Shown: positions 4,740 to 52,262, counted from the stretch's first letter. The stretch: 64,000 nucleotides of DNA from an uncultured Acidobacteriaceae bacterium (GCA_963826875.1 CAWGYP010000023.1:458602-522601); one strand, 5' to 3'. Notes: generated by a model from the letters alone, not told the origin. A program made the numbers and translations.

Positions 4740-6005
4740 ATGCTCCGGCGAACTACTCTCGTAATCTTCCTGGTCGCGCTCTCTGCACAAGCCCTTCCGC
4801 AAACAACGCCCAAACCAAAACAGAACTTCGAAGAAGCCCTCATACAGGCCCGCAAGCCTCTTGTATTGAGTAACGGTAAACTCCTTGGCACGGGGGCTAT
4901 CCTTCTCAATGCTGCTGTTCAGCAATCCCGCTTCGTAATGCTTGGCGAAGATCATCTGACCCACGAAATCCCGCAGTTCGCCGCTGCCCTTTGCGACATC
5001 ATGCACCCGGATGCTTACGCAGTCGAGGCTGCACCGTCCGCTGCGCACTTCGTCAACGGCCTGCTGGAAAAGCCCAATCGCTTAGAAATGATGGCCGCGC
5101 GCAGCAAGGCGTATCCCAACAATATGGCCTTTCTCGACATTCGCGAAGAAAACGATCTTGCCGTCCACTGCGCCGCATCCTCGCGCAACCCGAACTTCTC
5201 ACTCTGGGGTCTCGATCAGGAGTATCTCGGATCTGCAAGCACGTTGTTGGCTGCCATGGCCGCGAGCAATCCTGGTCCAAGGTCCCGCGCCGCAATCACA
5301 GCTGCACAGGTCGAAGACCGCCTCGCAGAAGCCGAAGCACGCCGCACCGGGGACTTCGGCAAACTATTCCTGCTGGCAGCGACAGATGCCGATGTGCAGG
5401 CGCTACAGACAGCGATCGATACAGACGGCAACGCGGAAACCCAAGACCTTCTCCACGAGTTCACTGTCTCGCACAGAATTTATCGCCTGAATAAAGAAGG
5501 CTCGCCCGATTCCAATCTCGTCCGCGCAGAACTTCTCAAGCAACATTTCCTTGCCAGCTATGCCCCCTTCAAGCATCAAAGTCCGGCCCCACGCATATTC
5601 TTCAAACTAGGCGATAACCATACGGGGAAGGGCTTCAATTACACGCATGAACTGAATCTCGGAAACTTCGTCGCTGAGGTGGCAGCGGGAGAGCAGGCAC
5701 AGTCCTTGCACATTTTCGTGTTGGGTGCACGCGGGGAGCACTTCGCCATAAATGGATATGGCAGGCCCTTGGGCCAACAACCCTTTGTCCTCTCCGACGA
5801 CCCAGACTACAAATGGCTTGCCCCTGCCGTCGCCAACATGCTGCCACAAGGGCCTGTGGGCGTCGGGACTACGCTGACCCTTTTCGATCTGCGCCAACTC
5901 CGTTACCGGGGTTTAGATCTGTCCCGTGAGTGGGAACACGCGATCTACAGTTACGACATTTGCGTCCTCATGCCCGAATTGACAGTAGCCTCTCCCATCG
6001 AATAA
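4740..6005 (+). CDS. Hypothetical secreted protein
   Basis: 421-aa ORF with signal peptide MLRRTTLVIFLVALSAQALPQ. I did not recognise a family. Confidence 0.6.
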   Translation: MLRRTTLVIFLVALSAQALPQTTPKPKQNFEEALIQARKPLVLSNGKLLGTGAILLNAAVQQSRFVMLGEDHLTHEIPQFAAALCDIMHPDAYAVEAAPSAAHFVNGLLEKPNRLEMMAARSKAYPNNMAFLDIREENDLAVHCAASSRNPNFSLWGLDQEYLGSASTLLAAMAASNPGPRSRAAITAAQVEDRLAEAEARRTGDFGKLFLLAATDADVQALQTAIDTDGNAETQDLLHEFTVSHRIYRLNKEGSPDSNLVRAELLKQHFLASYAPFKHQSPAPRIFFKLGDNHTGKGFNYTHELNLGNFVAEVAAGEQAQSLHIFVLGARGEHFAINGYGRPLGQQPFVLSDDPDYKWLAPAVANMLPQGPVGVGTTLTLFDLRQLRYRGLDLSREWEHAIYSYDICVLMPELTVASPIE

Positions 6006-6031
6006 TCAGCTCCGACCAGGCTCTGGTTATG

Positions 6032-6085
6032 ACCGCCCACCCGGAAGTTACCCCAAAACGGGTGTAATGTCCGGGTTGGCGACAA
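6032..6085. repeat. Intergenic hairpin repeat, copy A (modules M1+M2)
   Basis: ACCGCCCACCCGGAAGTTACCCCAAAACGGGTGTAATGTCCGGGTTGGCGAC. Nearly identical to copy B. CCCGGAAGTTAC can pair with GTAATGTCCGGG (10 of 12). Confidence 0.85.
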
Positions 6086-6291
6086 TACAATCGGAACCCG
6101 AAGACCAGGGCGAGTCGGAGCTGGAAACGCGCGCATTGGCCTGTCATTCAGTGAGGATCGAACTTGCCGAAAACCCGTCTTTTCTGGGCGTTCGCAACTC
6201 GCACCTTGCGCTCGCGACGTATCATCTAGATAGATTTTGGAGTCCGAATCGAGTCGATGAGAAGCAGGGTCCTTTGAGCGGAGCGACGACC

Positions 6292-6912
6292 ATGATCAGG
6301 CGCATTCTTTTCGCACTCGCCATCTCGACAGTTCCGCCAGTCCTTGCCTATGCCATCGGCGATTCGCCGATCCAAACGGTTGAGATTGCACCTCTTTTCT
6401 ATCAGCGGTTCGCCTGTACGGAGCATGTGAACGGCGAGCTAAGTGATCTCGGTGATGCGCTCGGCTCGGATTGTCTCGTTCTAGGTGGTATGGGCGGGTC
6501 CAAGGGAATGATGCGGCTCTACAAGACAAACGGTGTAACCAACGACGACTGGTATAGCTGGCATGTTGAAGTCCACGCGCCCTTTGATGGGGTTGTTATC
6601 GAGGTCGCGAAAAATAGCACAACTAACACTCCAGGAAATGCAGGACAACCGCCTCCCGGTTACATCGAGTTCCAACGAGCAGATGGAGTGGTCGTGGTAT
6701 ATGCCCATCTCGATGACATAAGAGTGCGCCAAGGCGATCACGTCGGCGTGGGACAAGTGGTTGCTTTGGACGGAAATAATGGAACCGCTAAGAATCCCCA
6801 TGTGCATGTCGGTGCGTATCGCGGCAAGAAGCCTCTGCAAATCCGTTGGGACCTAGCTGCAGAGGGTCGCATCCAGACGCTGGCTCATCCTCAGCAGCAG
6901 CCGCATCCTTGA
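6292..6912 (+). CDS. M23 (LytM)-like peptidase domain protein, secreted
   Basis: Start moved to ATG 6292 (MIRRILFALAISTVPPVLAYA signal). VVVYAHLDDIRVRQGDHVGVGQVVALDGNNGTAKNPHVHVG matches the C-terminal M23 pattern including HxH. Confidence 0.6.
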   Translation: MIRRILFALAISTVPPVLAYAIGDSPIQTVEIAPLFYQRFACTEHVNGELSDLGDALGSDCLVLGGMGGSKGMMRLYKTNGVTNDDWYSWHVEVHAPFDGVVIEVAKNSTTNTPGNAGQPPPGYIEFQRADGVVVVYAHLDDIRVRQGDHVGVGQVVALDGNNGTAKNPHVHVGAYRGKKPLQIRWDLAAEGRIQTLAHPQQQPHP

Positions 6913-6965
6913 CGGTTCCCACAATACGGCGTTCTGAGCAATTACGACGTTGTTACCCTTCTCCC

Positions 6966-7079
6966 CCGATGCACTCATCGATCGTGGCTGGCCGAGAAAT
7001 CTCGTCTCCCACGCTTTCGGGCGAGTCACCGCCCACCCGGAAGTTACCCCAAAACCGGTGTAATGTCCGCGTTGGCGAC
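6966..7079. repeat. Intergenic hairpin repeat, copy B (long form: leader + M1 + M2)
   Basis: CCGATGCACTCATCGATCGTGGCTGGCCGAGAAATCT...GTCACCGCCCACCCGGAAGTTACCCCAAAACCGGTGTAATGTCCGCGTTGGCGAC. The leader part is shared with copy C and the M1+M2 part with copy A. Confidence 0.85.
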
Positions 7080-7229
7080 GATCCGCCCAGAACTCAGAAG
7101 GGTGCCTCATTCCCGCTCGATGAGGGCATTGCCCGTTCTCGTCAATCGAGGACCAAGTGTGAAATCATGTTTGACGGATACCATACCTTCTCATCCGCTG
7201 AGCCGCGAGTTTCTGCGAAGGAGGATTCC

Positions 7230-8009
7230 GTGTTCAAGCGTGCTCTCCAGTTGTTGGTGGCGGCCTGGCTGACCACAGGTATGTTGTGGGCGGCGAGCGA
7301 TCCATTTGTCGGAAAATGGAAGCTCGATCCTTCCCAAAGCAAGGAAACTGACCAAATGAAGATCGAAGCCGCCGGCCCAAACAGGTACGTCTTCGACTTT
7401 GGCGGTGGTGGAACAGAGACGATTGTGGTGGACGGGACCGAACAGCCCGGCCACTCAGCAACCACCGTGTCGGTTACCCCCGTCGAGCCCAATACTTGGA
7501 AGTTCGTCCGCAAGAAGGACGGGTACACAGTAATGACGGCCATCTTCAAGCTTTCAGCGGACGCCAACACGCTCACCGACAACTTCACGGCCTCTCGGCC
7601 CGATGGGTGGACATTCAGCATCGATTACGTGTTCACGCGAACGGCAGGGAGCTCGGGTTTCGCGGGCACGTGGGAAAGTGCGAACGAGAAGGTAAATTCA
7701 GTCTACGAACTTGAGATTCAGCCTTACCAGGGGGACGGCCTCGCACTCTTCCTTCCTGCGGAACATTCCGCCAGAAAGATGAAATTCGACGGGAAAGATT
7801 ATCCCGTCCAGGGCGCCGAGGTTAAGCCGGGCTCCGCGTCGTCGGGACACCAGGTGAACGACCATACTCTGGAAATAACCGACAAGATCAACGGCAGGAC
7901 CACAGACACGCAGCGGATCACGCTTTCTCCCGACCTGAACACGTTGACGATGACCGTTCAACAGGCGGGTCACAGCAAGCCGGATGCATTGGTGTTCAAT
8001 CGGGAATAG
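7230..8009 (+). CDS. Hypothetical secreted beta-rich protein
   Basis: The long ORF 6846-8009 was trimmed to GTG 7230, preceded by AGGAGGA. VFKRALQLLVAAWLTTGMLWA looks like a signal peptide. The region upstream of 7230 is occupied by repeat copy B. Confidence 0.6.
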   Translation: MFKRALQLLVAAWLTTGMLWAASDPFVGKWKLDPSQSKETDQMKIEAAGPNRYVFDFGGGGTETIVVDGTEQPGHSATTVSVTPVEPNTWKFVRKKDGYTVMTAIFKLSADANTLTDNFTASRPDGWTFSIDYVFTRTAGSSGFAGTWESANEKVNSVYELEIQPYQGDGLALFLPAEHSARKMKFDGKDYPVQGAEVKPGSASSGHQVNDHTLEITDKINGRTTDTQRITLSPDLNTLTMTVQQAGHSKPDALVFNRE

Positions 8010-8064
8010 AAGAGGGCGTTGGTGATGTCTTACCAGGGCACCATTCTTAGTGAGCGGATAGTCG

Positions 8065-8158
8065 CCGATGCACTCTTCGAGCGTGGCTGGCCGAGAAATC
8101 TTTGTCTCCCACAATTCCGGTCGGGTCACCGCCCACACGAAAGTTACCCCAAAACGGG
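8065..8158. repeat. Intergenic hairpin repeat, copy C (leader + M1 only)
   Basis: CCGATGCACTCTTCGAGCGTGGCTGGCCGAGAAATCT...GTCACCGCCCACACGAAAGTTACCCCAAAACGG. It stops in the loop, with no adjacent M2 module. Confidence 0.8.
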
Positions 8159-8379
8159 GAGATGAGGGGACAGCATACCGTTCCCCCCGAAACCGCCGTT
8201 AATAAGTATGCTGTCCCTTTGTCTCCCTAGCCGTGAATCATCCAATTCGTCAACTGCCAAAAGAATCCCAGCCTCTCAAAAGAGGCATTATTCCGGTGCG
8301 CTCTCGCCGAGGGCTACGAGCGAAGAAAAACAGCGACGCTCCGGATTCCGGTCGGTTTACGGCCAACCAAGAAGTAGCG

Positions 8380-8425
8380 CCAAAACGGCGTCACTTCCGA
8401 GTTGGCCACAACCCTACCGAGATGT
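8380..8425. repeat. Intergenic hairpin repeat, copy E (M2 only)
   Basis: CCAAAACGGCGTCACTTCCGAGTTGGCCACAACCCTACCGAGATG aligns with the M2 modules of copies A, B and F. GTCACTTCCGAG is near-complementary to the M1 core. Confidence 0.7.
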
Positions 8426-8524
8426 ACCCTGGACGCATAACATGCTCAGGAGCCCACGATTCAGAGCTTTTCTGATGTGCTCCCGCAGCAGGTGGACACA
8501 GACCTTTTTGTCTCGAGGTGCGCG

Positions 8525-8749
8525 ATGAGTCGTACTTTCAACGCGGTGATGCGAGTGATCAGTAGCCTCATCGGTGTCTTGATGGTTCTGATGGGAGGGA
8601 TCTGGATTCTGCAGGGGCTGAATCTTGCTTGGGGCTCTCTTAGTCGCAGCTTCATGCAAGGCGATCAACATTGGGTGTTCTACGGCGTAATCATGCTGAT
8701 TGTCGGAGTGTGTCAGGTCGTTTGGAGCAACACCGGTCAACGGGAATGA
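8525..8749 (+). CDS. Small two-helix membrane protein
   Basis: 74 aa from ATG 8525. Two hydrophobic spans: VISSLIGVLMVLMGGIWIL and VFYGVIMLIVGVCQVVW. Confidence 0.5.
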   Translation: MSRTFNAVMRVISSLIGVLMVLMGGIWILQGLNLAWGSLSRSFMQGDQHWVFYGVIMLIVGVCQVVWSNTGQRE

Positions 8750-8807
8750 GATCCGTCGACCATACGGACAAAGAATTGACGACTCGTCATGGCTCAGCGG
8801 CTGATCC

Positions 8808-8850
8808 GAAACGACGTAACTTCCGAGTTGGCGACCATACTCCCAGAATG
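8808..8850. repeat. Intergenic hairpin repeat, copy F (M2 only)
   Basis: CGAAACGACGTAACTTCCGAGTTGGCGACCATACTCCCAGAATG. Shares about 40 nt with copy E. Confidence 0.7.
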
Positions 8851-8885
8851 AATGTCTTGAAGGGCAAACCGTTCCGGGCGCACGC

Positions 8886-9380
8886 TCACTGATTTGCGGG
8901 CCATTCAAAGGGGTGCTCCAACAATTCGCGGGCCTGATTGATCGCTCCGTCAGTGTTATCGCCGGTCTCAATTGCTAACTGGTATTGCGCAACGGCCCGT
9001 TCGCGTTGGCTAGTAATGTCAAAGATCTTCCCGATCTGAATGTGGCTCCAGGCTTTGGTCCAAACGGGATTCCCATCTCCGGCCAGCGAGTCGCGATAGG
9101 CGTCCACGCTTGCCTGGTAGGCGTGCTTTTCGAGAAGGAACTCCGCAATGCAATACCTCGCCAGCGAGCTCCGCGGAGTCGATTTGAGGTCACTGTGGCC
9201 CCAAAGGTACCGCTCCCACCGTGATTCCATGTTGTCATTGGCGTAGTCGGACAGCGCTTTATTCCGGTCGCAATCCGAGATATATCCATGCGCACTGATC
9301 TGAGCAAACGACGGTGCCGCTACCGCCAGCATCATGATCGCCATTTCAACAAAACAAAGATTCCGATTGGACAGTGTCAT
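8886..9380 (-). CDS. Hypothetical secreted protein with TPR-like helical repeats
   Basis: Start moved to ATG 9380, preceded by AAAGGAGGG. Signal peptide MAIMMLAVAAPSFAQ. Helical repeat-like segments (AYQASVDAYRDSL, RAVAQYQLAIETGDN). Confidence 0.6.
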   Translation of the reverse strand: MTLSNRNLCFVEMAIMMLAVAAPSFAQISAHGYISDCDRNKALSDYANDNMESRWERYLWGHSDLKSTPRSSLARYCIAEFLLEKHAYQASVDAYRDSLAGDGNPVWTKAWSHIQIGKIFDITSQRERAVAQYQLAIETGDNTDGAINQARELLEHPFEWPANQ

Positions 9381-9608
9381 AACCCTCCTTTCAGCGATGC
9401 TATGACGTGGGTGCTCTCGCAAGCAAACTCGATGGCTCACGCCCTTGAATTTGACACGTTAACCTTCAACTTTGTTTGATGGACGACCTCCCGATCGAAA
9501 CGATAGCAAGTGTTAATCTCGCGAGTCCAATCGCCCTATCTATCCTGTGGGAACGAGGGCCTAGTCACGAGCGTTCGCTGGCAACCGTAGCACCTTATTT
9601 ACGCATTA

Positions 9609-9628
9609 CCGGCCACCCGGAAGTTACC
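9609..9628. repeat. Intergenic hairpin repeat, copy D (M1 fragment)
   Basis: CCGGCCACCCGGAAGTTACC matches the M1 core of copies A and B. Confidence 0.55.
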
Positions 9629-9754
9629 AGTTGTCCAGCCTATAGCGGTCGCCTTTGCCAAGAGCCGCGACAGTCTCGGCAACAGGTTGAACATCCCTGA
9701 CGTTTGCGATGGTCGTTCAGTGCGAATCGACGTGCGCCCAGCCCCAGGCGACCG

Positions 9755-9774
9755 CCTGCTAAAAATGTAGCAGG
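9755..9774. promoter_or_regulatory. 7-bp inverted repeat, possible operator upstream of the PadR remnant
   Basis: CCTGCTA-AAAATG-TAGCAGG, a perfect 7+7 palindrome about 60 nt upstream of ATG 9837. A regulatory function is a guess. Confidence 0.25.
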
Positions 9775-9836
9775 GTATTGCTGTCCGTCGGTGTTTGATG
9801 TACGCTTCCTGTCAGTTAGTGAGGGGTAGCACCGCT

Positions 9837-10037
9837 ATGACGAAGCCTTCTGATCTGGTGCAGGGCACGCTTGACTTGCTCATCCTCAAAATCATCAGCC
9901 TCCAACCAATGCACGGATGGGCGATTGCTCAGCGGATTCAACAGCTCTCAAGCGATGTTCTTCGCGTCAATCAGAGCGCGCTCTATCCCGCCTTACATCG
10001 TTTGGAGCATCAAGGAGCGCCAAGCTTTCTTGGATGA
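9837..10037 (+). pseudogene. Truncated PadR-family regulator (N-terminal 60 residues only)
   Basis: MTKPSDLVQGTLDLLILKIISLQPMHGWAIAQRIQQLSSDVLRVNQSALYPALHRLEHQG, then APSFLG-stop. The intact paralogs in this window continue WI..KWG.SENNRKA.FY. The wing and C-terminal helix are missing. Confidence 0.7.
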
Positions 10038-12556: not shown

Positions 12557-14224
12557 TCACAGGCTCAGCTTAAGACTTATGAGATCCAAAGTTTCTTCTT
12601 CCTGAAAGATCATTTTTTCCGCCCTTTGCCCTCGGTGCGTGGTCCATTGCCTCACGGCGATGGCGCACGAAGCCAGAATGGCAATCAGGAGAGCCGATCG
12701 AAGCCCTGATATCAGGAACCAGGATTCAAACAATCCGGCTTGTTTTGCCAGCGGGATTCCGACGACAACGCCGCCCCACAAGCGCAGATGGAGCTCCCCT
12801 TTCCCAGGCAGATAGGAGCAGGCGAAAGGGAGCTTTGGAAGACTCAGCAGAGCAATGTCTATCAGGATGGACCCAACAATCCAAAGTGCAAGCAGATGGA
12901 CAAGCGTCGTCCATATCGGGAATTGCCAAAGTAGCACTGCAGAAATGAGCAGCCAGACGGGAATGATCGAGAGCCCAAGCAAGGTTCGCCGCACAGCTCT
13001 CACATATACGCCTGGAGCATGGATCTGGGTCAGCTGAAATATCCAATTGGCACGGAGACCAACCGGGATAGCGACCACCAGCCTAAGGCCGAGCACCGCG
13101 AAGCACAGGATCATCAAGGATGCCGTAAGATAAGGATCCGGCAACTGACTGTTCGTCGCTATCGATTCGAACCGGCTTTGAGCGATCCCCGTGAAGAATA
13201 GTGAAACCGCCAGCCCCAGGCACAGATAAAAAGCGTAGAAGAGCCGATGCTGACGGCTGCGAAGAAGACTGCGCACGGCAAATTGGACTACAGCGGTTTC
13301 AACCGAGCTCCGGAACCGAGGCAAACCAACGACCCTGCTCCGGCCGGGAAGAATATCTGGCTGCTCGACTGCCCGCTGAAGACGCCAGAACCACGCAGAC
13401 AACAACAGCATGATCGCCAGGGTGGCGGCGATGATCAGCCCCGTCCAGGCTCTGGCCGCGAGCGAGGCAAATGCCGGCTGCATCGACCCGTTCAGTTGCT
13501 GGAACAATCCCAGAAACCAGTAGGAAGGCAGGTTTTTCAGAAGCCATTGATTGGCGGGGGCAGTCAGTGCCGGAATACTTTCAAGAGACGGTTCCAATAA
13601 GTAGCCGCCAAGCAAGAGGGTGAATGCGCAAACCTGGAGCAGCGACGACAGACGAAGAAACAGTTGCCACGGAAGCAGTAAAGCCGCCGCACCCTGTAGG
13701 CAAAGAACACAGCAGAAAATAAATGTCGCAGCGGCCGCGATGGTAGCCCAGTATGCACCGATCGCCCTGATGCCACCAAGCAAGCCCGTGCCAGGATTAC
13801 TGAAGAACAGCGGCCATACCATGCCGATGAAGCAGTTCAAGGAAATAATAGAGAAGCTGAGCACCCCGGTAAGGGCAGAAAGCTTCGCCAAAAACACCGT
13901 ACGCACCCGGACCGGCAAAGGACCGAGGACCAGCAGATCGCGTCGGTCGGGAAAGGAGGATTCCCAGCTGAGGACAGCGAGCAGACCGACAATCATCATG
14001 GTCGTCGCAATGAACAAATGCTCCATCATCCAGAGTTGAGGCTGAGGCATTCCACCACCCACGAGAACAAGCGGCGCAGTGAAGAGAACACTGATCCCGG
14101 CAAGCATTGTGGCGATTTGACCCAGCAGCCTTTGCGTATCACTATCCGGTGACAGGACTTCCAGGTCTACAACGCGAAGCCAGAACACTCGATAGAGCAC
14201 GCGAAACTGCGAGGGTTCAGGCAT
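12557..14224 (-). CDS. Large polytopic membrane protein, probable permease partner of the upstream ABC ATPase
   Basis: About 555 aa with many hydrophobic spans. ATG 14224 overlaps the ATPase stop (ATGCCTGA). Confidence 0.65.
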   Translation of the reverse strand: MPEPSQFRVLYRVFWLRVVDLEVLSPDSDTQRLLGQIATMLAGISVLFTAPLVLVGGGMPQPQLWMMEHLFIATTMMIVGLLAVLSWESSFPDRRDLLVLGPLPVRVRTVFLAKLSALTGVLSFSIISLNCFIGMVWPLFFSNPGTGLLGGIRAIGAYWATIAAAATFIFCCVLCLQGAAALLLPWQLFLRLSSLLQVCAFTLLLGGYLLEPSLESIPALTAPANQWLLKNLPSYWFLGLFQQLNGSMQPAFASLAARAWTGLIIAATLAIMLLLSAWFWRLQRAVEQPDILPGRSRVVGLPRFRSSVETAVVQFAVRSLLRSRQHRLFYAFYLCLGLAVSLFFTGIAQSRFESIATNSQLPDPYLTASLMILCFAVLGLRLVVAIPVGLRANWIFQLTQIHAPGVYVRAVRRTLLGLSIIPVWLLISAVLLWQFPIWTTLVHLLALWIVGSILIDIALLSLPKLPFACSYLPGKGELHLRLWGGVVVGIPLAKQAGLFESWFLISGLRSALLIAILASCAIAVRQWTTHRGQRAEKMIFQEEETLDLISLKLSL

Positions 14225-25559: not shown

Positions 25560-26792
25560 CTAAATGAATGGACCAAGATGCAGCGGGTCTACGGCTTGAC
25601 CTGCTTTGCGGCCGATTTGGAGGAGCTTATCCATGTTTTCGACGCCATCCATCTTCTGGATACTGGCGGGAATTACATCGTTGAAGCCCGCGGTCTTGAG
25701 ACCCTGCGCGCTCAGATCGGCATTGTAACGCGCATAAAGGAAATGCCGGCCTAGATCGCTGGTAAGCGGAATTTGAGGAGAGGTAATATCGGAATCGACC
25801 TCCCGGGGGACCATGTCATGCATCTCGCGATCCAGCCGCGAGCCATAGGTGCAGCGCCCAATCGTTCTGCAGTTGATGTCTTGTTCAACCTGTATGGCAT
25901 ACATGAGGGCTCCGGAAAGTCCGGTGATGGTGGAAACAATATTCTTATTGGGCGAGCTGGCAGTCGCTCCCATCGACTCCGCTGCGCCGGTTCCCACTGA
26001 GACCAGCAGCAGGTTCTTCTCTCCAGTTTTCCAATTGAGCCGGTAAGCGGGATTGGTCGCCATACGATAGAGGAGGAATGCTGGATTGTTATGGGGGGTA
26101 ACGCCGCCATCGACAAAAACAAATGTCTTGCTCTTGTCATGCGGATCCCATTGGAGAATCTCCGGGGGAAAATAGACCGGCGCGGCGGTGCTGGCGCGCA
26201 CCAGCTGCCACAGCGGTATTTGCAGATTACAGTCCTGGCGGGTGGGATCGTTGTACCTGGCATCCGGGTTATTGCTGATCGGCCAGGGCGAATCGGTGGT
26301 GGCGTTTTTTGTCACCAGCAGCAGAAGGCAGCGCAGAGTGTGCGAAGCCAGAGTGGTATCGGCGCCTAAGAAGACCTGGAGCTTCTGCTTGAGAGGATCG
26401 GCAGTATAAAAATTCTTCAAGCGCTGCACCAGAACCGCGGGCTCGAACATTTGTTTGCCGCAGGATCTATAGAATTCAATAATCTCCCCAACTTTCATTC
26501 CCCGTGCAAGCCCCGCGGCAATGATCGAGCCGGTGCTGGTTCCTGCGATGTAATCAAAGTAATCGCACAGTCTCAGGCGGGTGCGCTCGAAAACCAGGGC
26601 TTCCAGAGACTCAAGGATGCCGAGGGCGACCAGGCCGCGAATGCCGCCGCCATCGAGGGCGAGCATACGACGCGGCCGGTCTTCTCTGAAGCGTTCCGGT
26701 AGTAACTGCCACCTCTCAGGGTGAATCAACATTCCAGATCCCTCGGCAATAGCGCAAGATTTTCCTGAACCGGGCCCCTCATGACCCGGCAT
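25560..26792 (-). CDS. Patatin-like phospholipase
   Basis: Oxyanion LALDGGGIRG, nucleophile elbow IAGTSTGS, dyad Asp FVDGGV. ATG 26792 abuts the upstream stop (TGAATG). An alternative start is ATG 26732 (MLIHPERW). Confidence 0.85.
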   Translation of the reverse strand: MPGHEGPGSGKSCAIAEGSGMLIHPERWQLLPERFREDRPRRMLALDGGGIRGLVALGILESLEALVFERTRLRLCDYFDYIAGTSTGSIIAAGLARGMKVGEIIEFYRSCGKQMFEPAVLVQRLKNFYTADPLKQKLQVFLGADTTLASHTLRCLLLLVTKNATTDSPWPISNNPDARYNDPTRQDCNLQIPLWQLVRASTAAPVYFPPEILQWDPHDKSKTFVFVDGGVTPHNNPAFLLYRMATNPAYRLNWKTGEKNLLLVSVGTGAAESMGATASSPNKNIVSTITGLSGALMYAIQVEQDINCRTIGRCTYGSRLDREMHDMVPREVDSDITSPQIPLTSDLGRHFLYARYNADLSAQGLKTAGFNDVIPASIQKMDGVENMDKLLQIGRKAGQAVDPLHLGPFI

Positions 26793-27434
26793 TCAGAGTG
26801 TGGAAACTGGGATCACTTCCAGGTTTCTGTCGACTGCAAGTTTACGGAATTGCTCGGTCAGGTCGGTTGGACCCCGGCTGAGTCCATTCCAAACCACCAT
26901 AGCCAGGGTGCGGCAGCCGGCGACTGATGCCAATCCCTCAGCCTGATCGAGGATTTCGGAGTTTGCCGCGGCATAGGCCTGGTCGCTGCTTTGCTGAAGG
27001 TTCAGTTCCACGATGTGTTCGCCGGGCAGTTGGTGCAGAATGGCGTCGAAGCGAAGGCCCCAGTCTTCACCGCGATCGGTGACCGAGGTGGCACGGAATT
27101 TCTGTCTGCCAAACGGGAGCACTAGGCGGCGGCCGAGACCGAGTTGCGCCGCCGCTTCAAGGGCAAGAATATCCGCGCCGCAGGCTCCCGAACACACCAC
27201 CACTTTGGTAGTAGTCGAGAGCATCATGTTGCGAATGCGGCGGGCCACTAAGGCCTCGTTCCCGGCAGGGAATCTGGGCTGGTCCGCGCCGTCGGGATCG
27301 ATTCGTCTGCCGGATACGGCGAGAACGGTTCCTGTCGGGCCGGACTTGATACCGGACGTTGGAAATGCGCCTGACTCCGCAGGGGCAAGTTTGTTCCCGA
27401 AGGGCATCGCCACAAAGCACACTGGAGTCAGCAT
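26793..27434 (-). CDS. Rossmann-like protein with SLOG/DprA/LOG-like glycine loop (putative nucleotide-ligand sensor)
   Basis: 213 aa from ATG 27434 (GAGGGG 10 nt upstream). TVLAVSG, KVVVCSGACGADILALEAAAQLG and TLAMVVWNG resemble the strand/G-loop pattern of SLOG-superfamily proteins. The assignment is inferred, not searched. Confidence 0.45.
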   Translation of the reverse strand: MLTPVCFVAMPFGNKLAPAESGAFPTSGIKSGPTGTVLAVSGRRIDPDGADQPRFPAGNEALVARRIRNMMLSTTTKVVVCSGACGADILALEAAAQLGLGRRLVLPFGRQKFRATSVTDRGEDWGLRFDAILHQLPGEHIVELNLQQSSDQAYAAANSEILDQAEGLASVAGCRTLAMVVWNGLSRGPTDLTEQFRKLAVDRNLEVIPVSTL

Positions 27435-27457
27435 AGATCGGCATCCCCTCTTAAGCT

Positions 27458-28333
27458 TTGGCGTCCGTGAAGCCGGCGGTGGAAACAATTCAAGTATCTT
27501 ACGCGGTCCAGCGTAGTGAGCGTAGACTCGTCCCAAGATCCCCCGAAAGCGCCAGTTGCCGCCAAAAACAGAGGCGAGTTTCCCTAAAAGGAGATCCTTT
27601 CCTGCACGCAATTTTCATCAGTTACCGCCGCGATGATTCAGAGGGCGAGGCGGGCCGCCTGGCCGATGACCTGGCACACAGGTTCCGGGAAGATTCTGTG
27701 TTTATGGATGTGACTGCAATCCAGCCAGGTCGTGATTTTCGCAAGGCAATTGACGAGAGTATCCACAAATGCAGTGTGCTGCTAGCGATCCTTGGGCAGG
27801 GATGGCTGGAGTCCAGGGACGGATTCGGACACAGACGTCTTGAGGATGAGAATGACTTCGTGCGGCTGGAGATCGCGTCGGCACTACAACGGGATATTGC
27901 TGTCGTTCCGGTGTTGGTTCGGGGAGCCCGCATGCCCAGGGCAGAGCAACTGCCGGACGACTTGAAGGAGCTGGCTTTTAGAAATGCGGTGGAGTTAACC
28001 CATGCCCGCTGGAAGTCTGACGTCCAGTTCCTGGTCCAGGCGATCAAGCCTTACCTGGAACTGTGCGAGGATACTACCAGTCCTCTGCCCGTTATCGACG
28101 CCAAGACGGCTGTGACCGCAACCATTATTGAAAGATCGGTGCTCGACCGGGTCAGCCGCGAGCTTGCAATCCATATCGGTCCGGTCGCCGAAGTGGTCGT
28201 CAGGCGGGCGGCGAAGCGCTGCTCGACGGTCACAGATCTTTGTGGAATGGTTGCGCAGGAGATTGAGGGGGCTCCGGCTCAGGCCAGGTTTCTGGCTTCC
28301 TGCATTCGCTCGCTAACCCCGCCGCGAGGTTGA
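27458..28333 (+). CDS. TIR-domain protein (TIR_2 type) with C-terminal helical module
   Basis: IFISYRRDDSEGEAGRLADDL...SVFMDV..I.PG.DF...I...I..CSVLLAILG.GW...DFVRLEIASAL. Start is uncertain: TTG 27458, or CTG 27602, which lies 8 nt after AAAGGAG. The TIR domain begins near 27608. Confidence 0.8.
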   Translation: MASVKPAVETIQVSYAVQRSERRLVPRSPESASCRQKQRRVSLKGDPFLHAIFISYRRDDSEGEAGRLADDLAHRFREDSVFMDVTAIQPGRDFRKAIDESIHKCSVLLAILGQGWLESRDGFGHRRLEDENDFVRLEIASALQRDIAVVPVLVRGARMPRAEQLPDDLKELAFRNAVELTHARWKSDVQFLVQAIKPYLELCEDTTSPLPVIDAKTAVTATIIERSVLDRVSRELAIHIGPVAEVVVRRAAKRCSTVTDLCGMVAQEIEGAPAQARFLASCIRSLTPPRG

Positions 28334-50270: not shown

Positions 50271-52262
50271 TCACCCTTGAAACGCAACCGACAGTACGGT
50301 AATGTCATCGGCCTGGCCAAATCCTATGGCGGTATTAGCGATGACGTGAGCCGGTTGGGTGCTTAGGGCAGCGGTGCGCTCGAAGCCTAAGAGCTCGCGA
50401 TGCTGGGTGGCTTCCGGAACACCATCCGTGATCAGAGTGAGTAGATCGCCGGGTACCAGTTGCAGAGTCTGCTCGGGAAACTCCGCGTCGGCGGTGATGC
50501 CGAGCGGCAGCGCTGCCTCGGTGGCGAGCTCGATCCCGTTGCGATAAGGCGCCAGGTGCCCGGCATTGGAAATTGTCAGAGTGCCGGAAGAAGACAGGCG
50601 GAGAACCACACAGGTGGTGAAACTGCTTCCGCGGCCTAGCAGGCGCCGATTCAGACCTGCAAGAACCTCACCGGGAGACTGCGTGTACTCGACCAGAGAG
50701 CGCAGGGCGCCAACCAGAAGGGAAACCGTCATAGCAGCGGGAAGACCCTTTCCTGCTACGTCGCCGATGACGATCAGGGTGTGGGCCGGAGTGTTCGAAG
50801 CGAGTGCCGGCAATGGGAAGATTTGGTAGAAATCGCCGCCAACCTCCTGCGCAGGGTGATAGGCGGTTTCGATTCTAAGGCCCGGAATATCAGGGAGGTT
50901 TTCGGGTATGAGGACCTGCTGGAGCGTACGGGCTGCCTCCAGATCGGAAATGTATTGCTGCTCGCTGGCCCGGGACTGGGCAAAACGACGGATGAGAAAA
51001 GCAAGCAGAGCGACGACAAAGATGAGCTGGACAAGAGCATCCAGTTGAAACGGAAAAGGCCTGCGCACAATGCTCCACGCGCCGGTGGAGGCAATGCGAC
51101 GCTGCCAGCCGAACTGGAAGGAAGACAGCAGCAGGCCATTGACAATATTCGTACCGTACAGCAAAAGTGTGGGCACGAGGAGGAGGCGAGCATTCAGGTT
51201 TCCGGCGAAGCTACGCCGTAATAACAGCGCAATAATCCACAGTGCGATCGGCACATCAAAAAGCACACGCAAGGTCGTAGTGGTGGCCGCGGAAGCCCAG
51301 CGAAAGACGTAGAGGAACACATTCAAGGGATCGAGGAGTGCCGTGATGAGGACAACGCGCCACAACCACGACCGCCGCGCCTCGAGGATGCGGGAAAAGA
51401 AGAAAAGGGCGGCCGCAATTCTGAGCGCGCCAAAGGTCTCGGCAGCGAAGTCGCTCCACGCCAGGGGAAAGTTGAAGAGGAAGCCGGAGACGAATAGAAC
51501 ACAAAGCAGCGCATCCGATATGAGAAGGATGGCGAACCAAACGTACTCGCGTTCCGATCTACGCGAGAGGTAAAGGCCGAACACGGTAAAGCCCACGATC
51601 GCGTCTAAGATGCCAACGGTGTAGAAGTCGACGATGCGGGTGGAGCGGTCTGCTTCGACGAGCTGGAACTGGCGTTCGAGTAAAGCGGCGTCACCCACCA
51701 GTCCGCCACCGTAACGCGGCCCACCCCCGAGGTAGGCGGCGAAGGTGGGGTGGTGCCATACCCGAATGGCGAGCTGGAGCGTAGCTCCGGCGGCGGCGGG
51801 GGGCAGGCGGTAAAGCAACGTCTGATTAAACTGCAGGCTCCCGTGCGGGGGCATTTTGCCGAAGCCGCCAATCCTGTGGCCGTTGTCAAAAACTTCGTAA
51901 TCGGTGAGGACGGAAGGCAGCAGAATGGCCAGGGGCATTGTCTGTGCGGGGGCGCGGACGGTGAAACGGTACCAGGCGAAGCCGCTCAAGCCGCTATAGC
52001 CCTGGATGGACCAGGGCTGGTCGGAACGGAGGAGCGGCCAGGCGGAGTCGTCAAATCCGGGATCTGCCCACTGGGGGTCGTCGCCGGGATGAAACCGCCA
52101 CTGGCCGTCGAGAGAGACGACGGGCTGGCGATCGGTCAACAACGAGAATGTGGCCGGCCCGGGCGGCGAGTCCAGGGACAAAACCGGCTGAGGCTTGGCC
52201 TTAGTGCTCGCCAGAGCAAAGAGAGCGACAACGAGTAGTACGTGGCAACATACCCTGTTCAT
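50271..52262 (-). CDS. PP2C/SpoIIE-family phosphatase with 7TMR-DISM-like sensor
   Basis: Signal, an extracellular beta-rich region and about 7 TM helices. C-terminal GGDFYQIF...IGDVAGKGLPAAMTVS...ITDGVPEA. Confidence 0.8.
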   Translation of the reverse strand: MNRVCCHVLLVVALFALASTKAKPQPVLSLDSPPGPATFSLLTDRQPVVSLDGQWRFHPGDDPQWADPGFDDSAWPLLRSDQPWSIQGYSGLSGFAWYRFTVRAPAQTMPLAILLPSVLTDYEVFDNGHRIGGFGKMPPHGSLQFNQTLLYRLPPAAAGATLQLAIRVWHHPTFAAYLGGGPRYGGGLVGDAALLERQFQLVEADRSTRIVDFYTVGILDAIVGFTVFGLYLSRRSEREYVWFAILLISDALLCVLFVSGFLFNFPLAWSDFAAETFGALRIAAALFFFSRILEARRSWLWRVVLITALLDPLNVFLYVFRWASAATTTTLRVLFDVPIALWIIALLLRRSFAGNLNARLLLVPTLLLYGTNIVNGLLLSSFQFGWQRRIASTGAWSIVRRPFPFQLDALVQLIFVVALLAFLIRRFAQSRASEQQYISDLEAARTLQQVLIPENLPDIPGLRIETAYHPAQEVGGDFYQIFPLPALASNTPAHTLIVIGDVAGKGLPAAMTVSLLVGALRSLVEYTQSPGEVLAGLNRRLLGRGSSFTTCVVLRLSSSGTLTISNAGHLAPYRNGIELATEAALPLGITADAEFPEQTLQLVPGDLLTLITDGVPEATQHRELLGFERTAALSTQPAHVIANTAIGFGQADDITVLSVAFQG

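Follow-up and report, generated by a model that had tools for sequence, protein, structure and literature searches.

The window analysed here, a 64,000-nucleotide stretch from an uncultured Acidobacteriaceae bacterium (GCA_963826875.1, CAWGYP010000023.1:458602-522601), carries four adjoining genes that recur as a block, encoding a TIR_2 + DUF8082 protein, a stand-alone SLOG-fold protein of 213 aa, a patatin-like phospholipase, and a membrane protein with a haem-Cache (Tll0287-like) domain and a HAMP domain. Together they may form a four-gene, Thoeris-like TIR signalling module, a reading for which the case stands about evenly balanced, and the locus is a split and truncated variant of the predicted TIR/TPR-S/SLOG/patatin systems rather than a new category. 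A sequence-only reading of this DNA had described the first three genes as a candidate hybrid of Thoeris and the cyclic-oligonucleotide-based antiphage signalling system (CBASS). All three open reading frames (ORFs) and their motifs were found where that reading had placed them, and the fourth gene, which it did not include, belongs to the module as well. The gene order, in which the TIR gene converges on the Tll0287-like + HAMP gene and diverges from the co-directional SLOG and patatin genes, is collinear in the window and in 12 other contigs (those named being L001-4, L014, L086, L090-92, L097, and L133), and the four-gene block is embedded in five pairs of 3-kb flanks that are unrelated to one another. 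Because a collinear block in five unrelated contexts indicates that the arrangement is not due to chance, a chance neighbourhood is unlikely for these four genes. The expectation that TIR, SLOG-like, and patatin genes would be found together in other genomes was thus borne out in part, as the block recurs in the 12 other contigs but a TIR_2 gene is lacking in the vicinity of most SLOG/patatin loci. All eight genome loci with the window type of TIR fall in one SLOG clade.

Attempts to name the 213-aa protein from its sequence failed, with no match at E <= 1 in Pfam, PADLOC, or NCBIfam, none in the Protein Data Bank (PDB) by sequence, phmmer, or profile search, and no family among precomputed matches to a newer Pfam release, whereas fold comparison was successful. 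The AlphaFold2 (AF2) model, built from 44 sequences, has a predicted local distance difference test score (pLDDT) of 88.6 and a predicted template-modelling score (pTM) of 0.81, with disorder only in residues 1-35. Foldseek matched it at probability 1.0 to PDB structures of DprA (3uqz, 5mll, and 4ljk), ShosA (8zva), and the Moco carrier protein 2iz7. Against viral models (BFVD), the top matches were phage DprA-like, "YspA cpYpsA-related SLOG", and DUF2493 proteins, with template-modelling (TM) scores of up to 0.61 (query) and 0.76 (target) at a root-mean-square deviation of 2.9 A. The assignment to the SLOG superfamily therefore rests on fold and is supported by the predicted model, and the lack of any curated match means that the protein represents an uncurated family within that superfamily. 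The SLOG-like character first suspected from a pattern of strands and glycine loops is upheld by these DprA, ShosA, YpsA-related, and DUF2493 relatives, the AlphaFold and Foldseek comparison having led to the SLOG side and not to an unrelated fold.

The SLOG domain occupies residues 33-213 of the protein, which carries the motifs TVLAVSG, SGACGAD, and VVWNGLSRGPTDLT. Its conserved core begins at TVLAVSGRRID, and the invariant residues lie within GRRxD, (S/A)ACGAD, SVxDR, DWG, and W(N/E/D)GxxRGxxDxT. Glycine loops are formed by (S/A)ACGAD after the strand at 76-81 and by W(N/E/D)GxxRGxxDxT after the strand at 175-182, with G86, D88, G184, R187, D191, and T193 invariant; these loops are the presumed counterparts of the LOG/DprA motifs. 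Relatives are numerous, with more than 150 in a word-indexed protein search, 305 matches among species-representative genomes, and 3,827 representatives of 50% identity clusters at E <= 1e-3 (554 at E <= 1e-30), most of these being stand-alone proteins of ~180 aa from Acidobacteriota. With the module comes an uncurated SLOG family, comprising at least 3,800 clusters at 50% identity and common in Acidobacteriota, a phylum that defence-system surveys cover poorly.

The patatin retains all of its catalytic motifs, as had been read from the sequence: GGGIRG at aa 48, GTSTG at aa 84 with the nucleophile Ser86, and VDGG at aa 227-230 with Asp228, which provide the Gly-rich oxyanion loop, the GxSxG nucleophile, and the DG(G/A) Asp by which patatins are recognised. 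The ORF matches Pfam Patatin at 8.8e-29, and scores 110.9 bits against the NCBIfam CBASS_lipase model (the CapV equivalog), under its 200-bit cut-off. A conserved C-terminal extension of ~110 aa is absent from CapV models.

The tie between the SLOG-like protein and the patatin was examined in a survey of 80 species-level genome loci with 8-kb flanks, in which genes within 4.5 kb were counted as neighbours. The same patatin subfamily is present within this distance in 32 loci, where it may be upstream, downstream, or divergent, and TPR-S + patatin fusions occur in four further loci, giving 32-36 SLOG loci with a patatin in total. Direct fusions are also found, namely patatin + SLOG (L035, 615 aa; P0143, 583 aa) and SLOG + TPR-S + patatin (L077, 1129 aa), together with TPR-S + patatin proteins adjoining SLOG (L036, L042, and L074) and a SLOG + TPR-S protein (P0127). 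Conserved adjacency in shuffled order and orientation, combined with these fusions, bears out the proposed functional tie; chance neighbourhood is rejected for this pair, and the SLOG-like protein and the patatin very probably act together.

Nearly half of the surveyed loci (39/80) also have a nearby protein in which a TIR-like or nucleoside-deoxyribosyltransferase-like N-terminal domain is followed by TPR-S (PF20308) and MAP3K_TRAF_bd, and in ~10 of these 39 the TPR-S protein forms the N-terminal part of a fusion with the SLOG domain, in products of 630-700 aa. Other neighbours include TPR-S + trypsin, calcineurin-like phosphoesterase, Lipase_3, SLATT, and TIR_2 + TPR-S proteins. In a neighbour-joining tree, 21 partner-less loci of the Blastocatellia type group together, and the window protein lies in the other part, in which a patatin, TPR-S, or TIR gene accompanies 46 of the 55 members. 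The partner-less clade, mainly from Blastocatellia (L020-L030, L044, L055, L058, L060, L073, and others), is set among RDD, GBBH-like_N, DUF1232, RluD-like, and glycosyltransferase genes, a conserved context that looks like housekeeping and contains no TIR, TPR-S, or patatin; its SLOG gene is often directly downstream of a small DUF1232 membrane protein, and its role may differ. At three other loci (L005 8601-10793, L084 3120-5357, and L099), a Ser/Thr kinase with TPR repeats takes the place of the patatin downstream of the SLOG-like gene.

Alignment with longer relatives accounts for the stand-alone form of the window protein. Its residues 1-26 (MLTPVCFVAMPFGNKLAPAESGAFPT) correspond to the opening ~26 residues of long fusions, such as that of L004 (MPIPVCFMVMPFGKKLTHAEGDKAPS), and residues 33-213 align with the last 181 residues of TIR-like + TPR-S + SLOG fusions, with an in-frame gap of ~420 residues between them in which the remainder of the TIR-like domain and the TPR-S region are missing. 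Judged by these alignments, the window SLOG protein arose from a TIR-like + TPR-S + SLOG fusion through loss of an in-frame segment, and owing to this deletion the TPR-S (PF20308) core protein is absent from the window locus; it is present in the sister loci L004, L014, and L086. What had been described as a stand-alone SLOG-like sensor is thus indeed a separate 213-aa gene with a SLOG fold, but one derived by deletion from a larger fusion. The short form is found on many independent contigs (P0001-P0014, L001, L002, L090-92, L097, and L133). Ratios of nonsynonymous to synonymous substitution rates (dN/dS) against the orthologues in L001, L002, L003, L006, and L014 are 0.19-0.47 for SLOG, 0.06-0.11 for the patatin, and 0.10-0.46 for the TIR protein. 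Purifying selection acts on all three genes and has continued after the deletion, and the possibility of a pseudogene decaying after the deletion is ruled out by these values (0.06-0.47). Given the ~420-residue deletion, the window lineage would run a minimal SLOG + patatin receiver, and the conservation of SLOG and patatin despite the loss of TPR-S argues that the SLOG domain is sufficient as a receiver. As a natural TPR-S/TIR-like deletion that leaves SLOG and patatin under selection, the locus bears on the identity of the sensing domain in TPR-S systems such as type VIII Thoeris. In L006 and L015 (about 5500-9900), the blocks look degraded, with the haem-Cache/HAMP gene a fragment or absent and the TPR-S + SLOG fusion frameshifted; the L015 patatin is in pieces, and the TIR gene is intact.

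The TIR protein contains the IFISYRR and VRLEIASAL motifs initially noted and matches Pfam TIR_2 at 3.3e-13, and the residue put forward as its catalytic Glu, Glu90 of VRLEIASAL (27869-27871), is invariant in 36 sequences. Its AF2 model (pLDDT 83.3) has a disordered linker at aa 155-173 followed by a three-helix domain at aa 178-238, so that the C-terminal helical module recognised earlier can be identified as DUF8082 (PF26309), an assignment taken from precomputed Pfam matches. When the DUF8082 segment alone was used as query, 4 fragments only were returned, which confirmed its identity but not wider architectures; thousands of relatives have the TIR_2 + DUF8082 architecture. By Foldseek, the TIR domain is closest to SARM1 (target TM score 0.72-0.78), TIR-1, and SPARTA TIRs. 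Among published Thoeris TIRs, the nearest are the type III TIR4 (ThcB4, 4e-6) and the TIRs of "4TM SLOG" effectors; the NCBIfam ThcB4 equivalog of type III Thoeris gives 44.8 bits over the TIR core only, against a cut-off of 220, and the validated type VII/VIII TIRs are not close (E 0.12-0.9).

A TIR_2 gene of any type is near the SLOG-like gene in 15 of the 80 surveyed loci, and types other than that of the window adjoin SLOG-like genes in L019, L023, L043, L068, L074, L076, and L078, representing ~six independent lineages. In L074, TIR_2, SLOG, and TPR-S + patatin follow one another on one strand, and the TIR ORF ends 14 nt before the SLOG match. Two further arrangements were observed. L068 (6911-12505; Calothrix sp. 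PCC 7716) contains a co-directional series of two short TIRs, a SLOG-like protein, TIR_2 + TPR-S, TIR-like + TPR, and SLATT_3/SLATT_1, a cluster of three TIRs with SLOG and SLATT that is reminiscent of type III Thoeris. In L076 (4475-13973), a TIR_2 + WD40 protein of 1147 aa is divergent from the SLOG-like gene, which is followed by TIR_2 + TPR-S, a calcineurin-like phosphoesterase, TPR-S + trypsin, and Lipase_3.

The fourth gene of the block encodes a 292-aa protein with a transmembrane (TM) segment, a Tll0287-like (sCache_heme) domain with a CLECH haem-c motif at aa 158, a second TM segment, and a HAMP domain, after which nothing follows, so that it has no output domain. Pfam matches the 90%-identical L001 orthologue as Tll0287-like (6.3e-38) and HAMP (1.3e-08), and the window protein itself shows matches in the HAMP region. 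The Tll0287-like + HAMP gene is a constant convergent neighbour of the TIR gene, even in loci without SLOG or patatin. A metagenome scan with this protein recovered 80 loci (L089-L168; 57-90% identity), and a convergent TIR-DUF8082 gene was present next to it in 67 of the 68 loci that had at least 800 bp downstream. No report of this pairing was found in the literature searched, and we regard the near-obligate association of a predicted haem sensor with a TIR protein as previously unreported and as the most interesting lead of the locus.

TIR signalling systems such as Thoeris diversify through effector swapping, and the genes beside the TIR pair vary in this manner. Among 31 loci with sufficient flanking sequence on either side, SLATT is present in 18, a SLOG-like gene in 4 (3 with patatin), neither in 9, and both in none; the neighbours in the "neither" class are housekeeping genes or unknowns. 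Across TIR-pair loci, SLOG occurs in 6 of 47. Two-TM SLATT genes flank the TIR pair in L083, L085, L087, and many of L103-L167, and such SLATT + haem-Cache/HAMP + TIR loci look like type VII-like Thoeris systems with an extra membrane sensor. One locus, L084 (466-2730), has genes for a bacterial gasdermin and a protease of the Peptidase_C25-like kind ~3 kb from its TIR-DUF8082/SLOG-like/Pkinase-TPR genes; apart from this gasdermin-protease pair, no clear known defence system was seen close to the TIR-DUF8082 type.

Tll0287-like domains have recently been reclassified as extracytoplasmic c-haem Cache domains, and a TM-sCache_heme-TM-HAMP protein of P. azotoformans without an output domain binds nitric oxide (NO) with sensor-like kinetics (bioRxiv 10.64898/2026.02.01.703092). 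The window protein has the same layout of TM, haem-c Cache, TM, and HAMP with no output domain; the P. azotoformans report mentions no TIR partner. The near-obligate pairing points to the TIR protein as a possible missing output of the haem-Cache/HAMP protein, perhaps docking via DUF8082, although this is speculative. A bolder and rather doubtful proposal is that TIR_2 + DUF8082 serves as a detachable cytoplasmic output of the haem-c Cache/HAMP receptor, such that a gas, redox, or envelope cue, and not recognition of a phage protein, would gate a messenger derived from nicotinamide adenine dinucleotide (NAD+) for interchangeable membrane effectors. If true, the messenger would be read either by a SLATT pore or by a trans-acting SLOG receptor with a patatin lipase, and TIR signalling in bacteria would have both an input of a new kind and a relay formed by three polypeptides, acting as generator, stand-alone receptor, and effector.

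The label of a CBASS hybrid did not survive comparison with known systems. No CD-NTase (SMODS) was found among the Pfam-annotated genes within 10 kb on each side, as annotated on a near-identical contig, and the patatin falls short of the CapV cut-off. A CBASS hybrid is rejected for want of a cyclase, and the locus is therefore Thoeris-like instead. The PADLOC comparison envisaged in the sequence-only reading gave a mixed outcome, with the patatin matching a CBASS phospholipase effector at 2.3e-41, the TIR protein giving a weak match to the ThsB model (2.4e-07), and the 213-aa protein giving none. With the cyclic GMP-AMP-activated CapV of CBASS, the patatin shares a catalytic core that is closest to CBASS phospholipase effector models, but it differs in its sub-cut-off score, its C-terminal region, and the lack of a CD-NTase. 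The locus resembles type I Thoeris, composed of the TIR protein ThsB and the SIR2-SLOG protein ThsA, in combining a TIR signal generator with a SLOG-fold receiver. The SLOG domain of ThsA senses 3' cyclic ADP-ribose (3'cADPR) (PMC9503650). In the present locus, however, the SLOG protein stands alone and the effector is a lipase rather than an NADase; in Pfam and PADLOC searches, neither a SIR2 domain nor a ThsA model match was found on the SLOG, patatin, or TIR protein.

The architecture had also been thought distinct from the canonical Thoeris types, yet it has precedents in Yirmiya et al. 2025 and Burroughs & Aravind 2020. Among the Thoeris configurations predicted by Yirmiya et al. (bioRxiv 10.64898/2025.12.03.692087, Tables S1/S2) is one in which the TIR has "SLOG Patatin" as a fused effector. 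Both that configuration and the window have a TIR gene beside a SLOG + patatin effector, with a presumed flow from TIR signal through SLOG to lipase. In contrast to the single polypeptide described there, SLOG and patatin are two genes here, the SLOG domains being compared by description, and the published TIRs belong to another cluster without a haem-Cache/HAMP partner or DUF8082. SLATT (ThsH) and a CMP-hydrolase + TPR protein (ThsI) are the validated effectors of type VII and type VIII Thoeris, respectively; both respond to canonical cADPR, and they can be swapped or combined under one TIR, sometimes in a shared operon. Sister loci of the window TIR-DUF8082 carry SLATT, and the full-length ancestor of the window SLOG has a TIR-like/nucleoside-hydrolase-like domain and TPR-S, an architecture of the ThsI type, whereas the window itself lacks both SLATT and the TPR-S part and has an extra SLOG domain and a patatin. 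A TPR-S network comprising TIR, YpsA-like SLOG, patatin, and calcineurin is attributed to Burroughs & Aravind 2020 (J Bacteriol 202:e00365-20) in the summary given in bioRxiv 10.1101/2023.05.26.542521. As far as that summary goes, the same TPR-S/TIR/YpsA-like SLOG/patatin/calcineurin-like network surrounds the SLOG-like family described here, but the window lineage has lost the TPR-S core, its SLOG family matches no Pfam SLOG model, and the haem-Cache/HAMP partner is not part of the summarised description.

If the four genes work as one Thoeris-like module, its invariant core would include the SARM1-like TIR_2 + DUF8082 enzyme, which would cleave NAD+ to yield an ADP-ribose-derived signal, plausibly of the cADPR type, and the haem-Cache + HAMP membrane protein, which probably regulates the TIR enzyme or determines its location. 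Variation would reside in a receptor/effector cassette, represented here by the stand-alone SLOG protein followed by the CapV-like patatin. The SLOG protein, as a putative sensor, would bind the TIR product and switch on the patatin, and the patatin would then degrade membrane phospholipids, leading to cell arrest or death in accordance with abortive-infection logic and suggesting an anti-phage role. We would give the complete chain, from TIR signal through SLOG receiver to membrane damage by the patatin, an even chance of being correct. The division of the receiver between a stand-alone SLOG protein and a patatin encoded by its own gene allows the question of trans-activation by a SLOG domain to be asked, and through the near-obligate pairing of TIR with a putative haem-binding extracytoplasmic sensor, cues from the envelope or of a redox nature could feed into TIR signalling.

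Several observations weigh against this chain. Approximately 21 patatin-bearing SLOG/TPR-S loci show no TIR_2 gene within 4.5 kb; the cassette can therefore work without a TIR of the window type, perhaps by relying on the TIR-like domain that its TPR-S partner carries. The TIR pair has no recognisable effector in 9 of 31 loci, where its neighbours are of the housekeeping kind, and the TIR and SLOG-patatin genes are transcribed divergently rather than together. The window TIR does not resemble those of the published "SLOG Patatin" candidates (phmmer E > 4), two fused systems of that kind gave no defence in E. coli (bioRxiv 10.64898/2025.12.03.692087), and the neighbouring genes, as seen on the near-identical contig, do not constitute a defence island. 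In the main rival explanation, possible although we would lean against it, two independent systems lie side by side: a self-contained SLOG + patatin cassette, which ancestrally had its own TIR-like + TPR-S domain, and a separate signalling or NADase unit of TIR-DUF8082 and haem-Cache/HAMP, brought together by one ancestral insertion that was inherited in an Acidobacteriaceae subclade. This explanation readily accommodates the ~21 patatin-bearing SLOG loci without a detectable TIR_2 gene, the 27 of 31 well-flanked loci in which the TIR pair stands by itself or beside SLATT, the divergent transcription, and the restriction of the eight genome loci to one SLOG clade, and it gains further from the claim that TPR-S core proteins make a cADPR isomer themselves (BcTir/Tpr preprint, bioRxiv 10.1101/2023.05.26.542521). 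It is less easily reconciled with the collinearity of the four genes across five unrelated flanking contexts, with the mutual exclusion of SLATT and SLOG cassettes at the TIR locus, or with the persistence of purifying selection on SLOG and patatin beside the TIR gene after the TIR-like + TPR-S part was lost. The adjacency of unrelated TIR_2 proteins to SLOG-like genes at seven other loci in ~six lineages likewise speaks for a connection between the two halves.

A different division of labour, which we consider improbable, would make the SLOG-like protein an enzyme, such as a LOG-like N-glycosidase that acts on a TIR-derived nucleotide as a maturase or off-switch, with the patatin sensing the ligand through its C-terminal extension. 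SLOG clades contain both enzymes and sensors (PMC9503650). The ~20 invariant and mostly polar or charged positions of the family (D88, S117, D120, W125, R187, D191, and T193) would be as compatible with a catalytic pocket as with a binding site, and both the large partner-less clade among housekeeping genes and the conserved additional ~110 aa at the patatin C-terminus are consistent with such an activity. Nevertheless, the fusions of SLOG to patatin and to TPR-S + patatin mirror sensor-effector fusions like ThsA, and the best structural matches lie on the non-catalytic DprA/YpsA side and not among LOG enzymes. It is to a similar degree unlikely that the module has no antiviral function and that the haem-Cache/HAMP protein responds, on the extracytoplasmic side, to NO or another gas or redox cue and drives the TIR output, the resulting nucleotide signal controlling membrane physiology via patatin or SLATT. 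The partner set of SLATT, patatin, TPR-S, trypsin, and TIR-like NADase makes up the classic toolkit of abortive infection, a gasdermin system adjoins one sister locus, and the convergent genes are not co-transcribed, all of which argue against this idea, whereas the pairing of haem-Cache/HAMP with TIR-DUF8082 in 67 of 68 loci, the lack of an output domain in the membrane protein, the binding of NO with sensor-like kinetics by a protein of the same architecture (bioRxiv 10.64898/2026.02.01.703092), and the location of the window and several sister loci outside defence islands argue in its favour.

Table 1. Positions of the genes and of the divergent intergenic region of the four-gene locus, counted from the first letter of the window.
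Feature	Position	Strand	Remarks
Patatin-like phospholipase ORF	25560..26792	-	410 aa; likely product 390 aa from ATG 26732
SLOG-fold protein, 213 aa	26793..27434	-	fold predicted by AF2 + Foldseek
Divergent intergenic region, 167 bp	27435..27601		between SLOG-patatin operon (likely) and TIR gene
TIR_2 + DUF8082 protein, 243 aa	27602..28333	+	ORF open from 27458; most likely start CTG 27602
Tll0287-like + HAMP membrane protein, 292 aa	28348..29226	-	convergent with TIR gene, 14-bp gap

The positions of the genes are given in Table 1. The 213-aa gene was called identically and independently on a near-identical public contig. The SLOG and patatin genes are co-directional and likely form an operon, in which the stop of the first had been read as abutting the start of the second. 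The TGAATG junction is present in the sequence, but the abutting ATG is probably not the true start: the L001 orthologue, whose patatin is 94% identical by tblastn and 97% identical over the 390-aa core, has no start codon at this position, the public near-identical contig has the patatin called as 390 aa from M21, and a GAGGGA Shine-Dalgarno-like site precedes M21. With the start at M21, the SLOG-patatin gap is therefore ~60 nt, and translational coupling via TGAATG was downgraded on this evidence.

For the TIR gene, homologues begin with M/V/L-x-x-IF(I/V)xYRR, three residues before IF(I/V)xYRR, and a Shine-Dalgarno sequence, AAAAGGAG, is located at 27586-27593, 8 nt upstream of CTG 27602. 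This CTG (LHAIFISYRR) is, from the sequence, most likely the start. The public call (L088 10001-10630) gives a 209-aa product from an internal ATG at 27704, which removes the first beta-strand IFISYRR; the CTG start with its strong Shine-Dalgarno sequence fits the homologues better. The CTG start therefore sets the divergent region at 167 bp, the upper end of the 25-170 bp first estimated for the shared control region. A consensus scan found no sigma-70-like promoter in 27435..27601, and the promoter/terminator scan of the locus was uninformative.

The contig is acidobacterial, and its closest loci are in metagenome-assembled genomes of Acidobacteriaceae. The neighbours of the locus encode a LytTR two-component system, DinB, a beta-propeller protein, GH39, PadR, AraC, and an ECF sigma factor with FecR. 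Elsewhere in the window, AT skew is high in two 1-kb bins, 13001-14000 (0.36) and 51001-52000 (0.34), with absolute values below 0.2 in the remainder.

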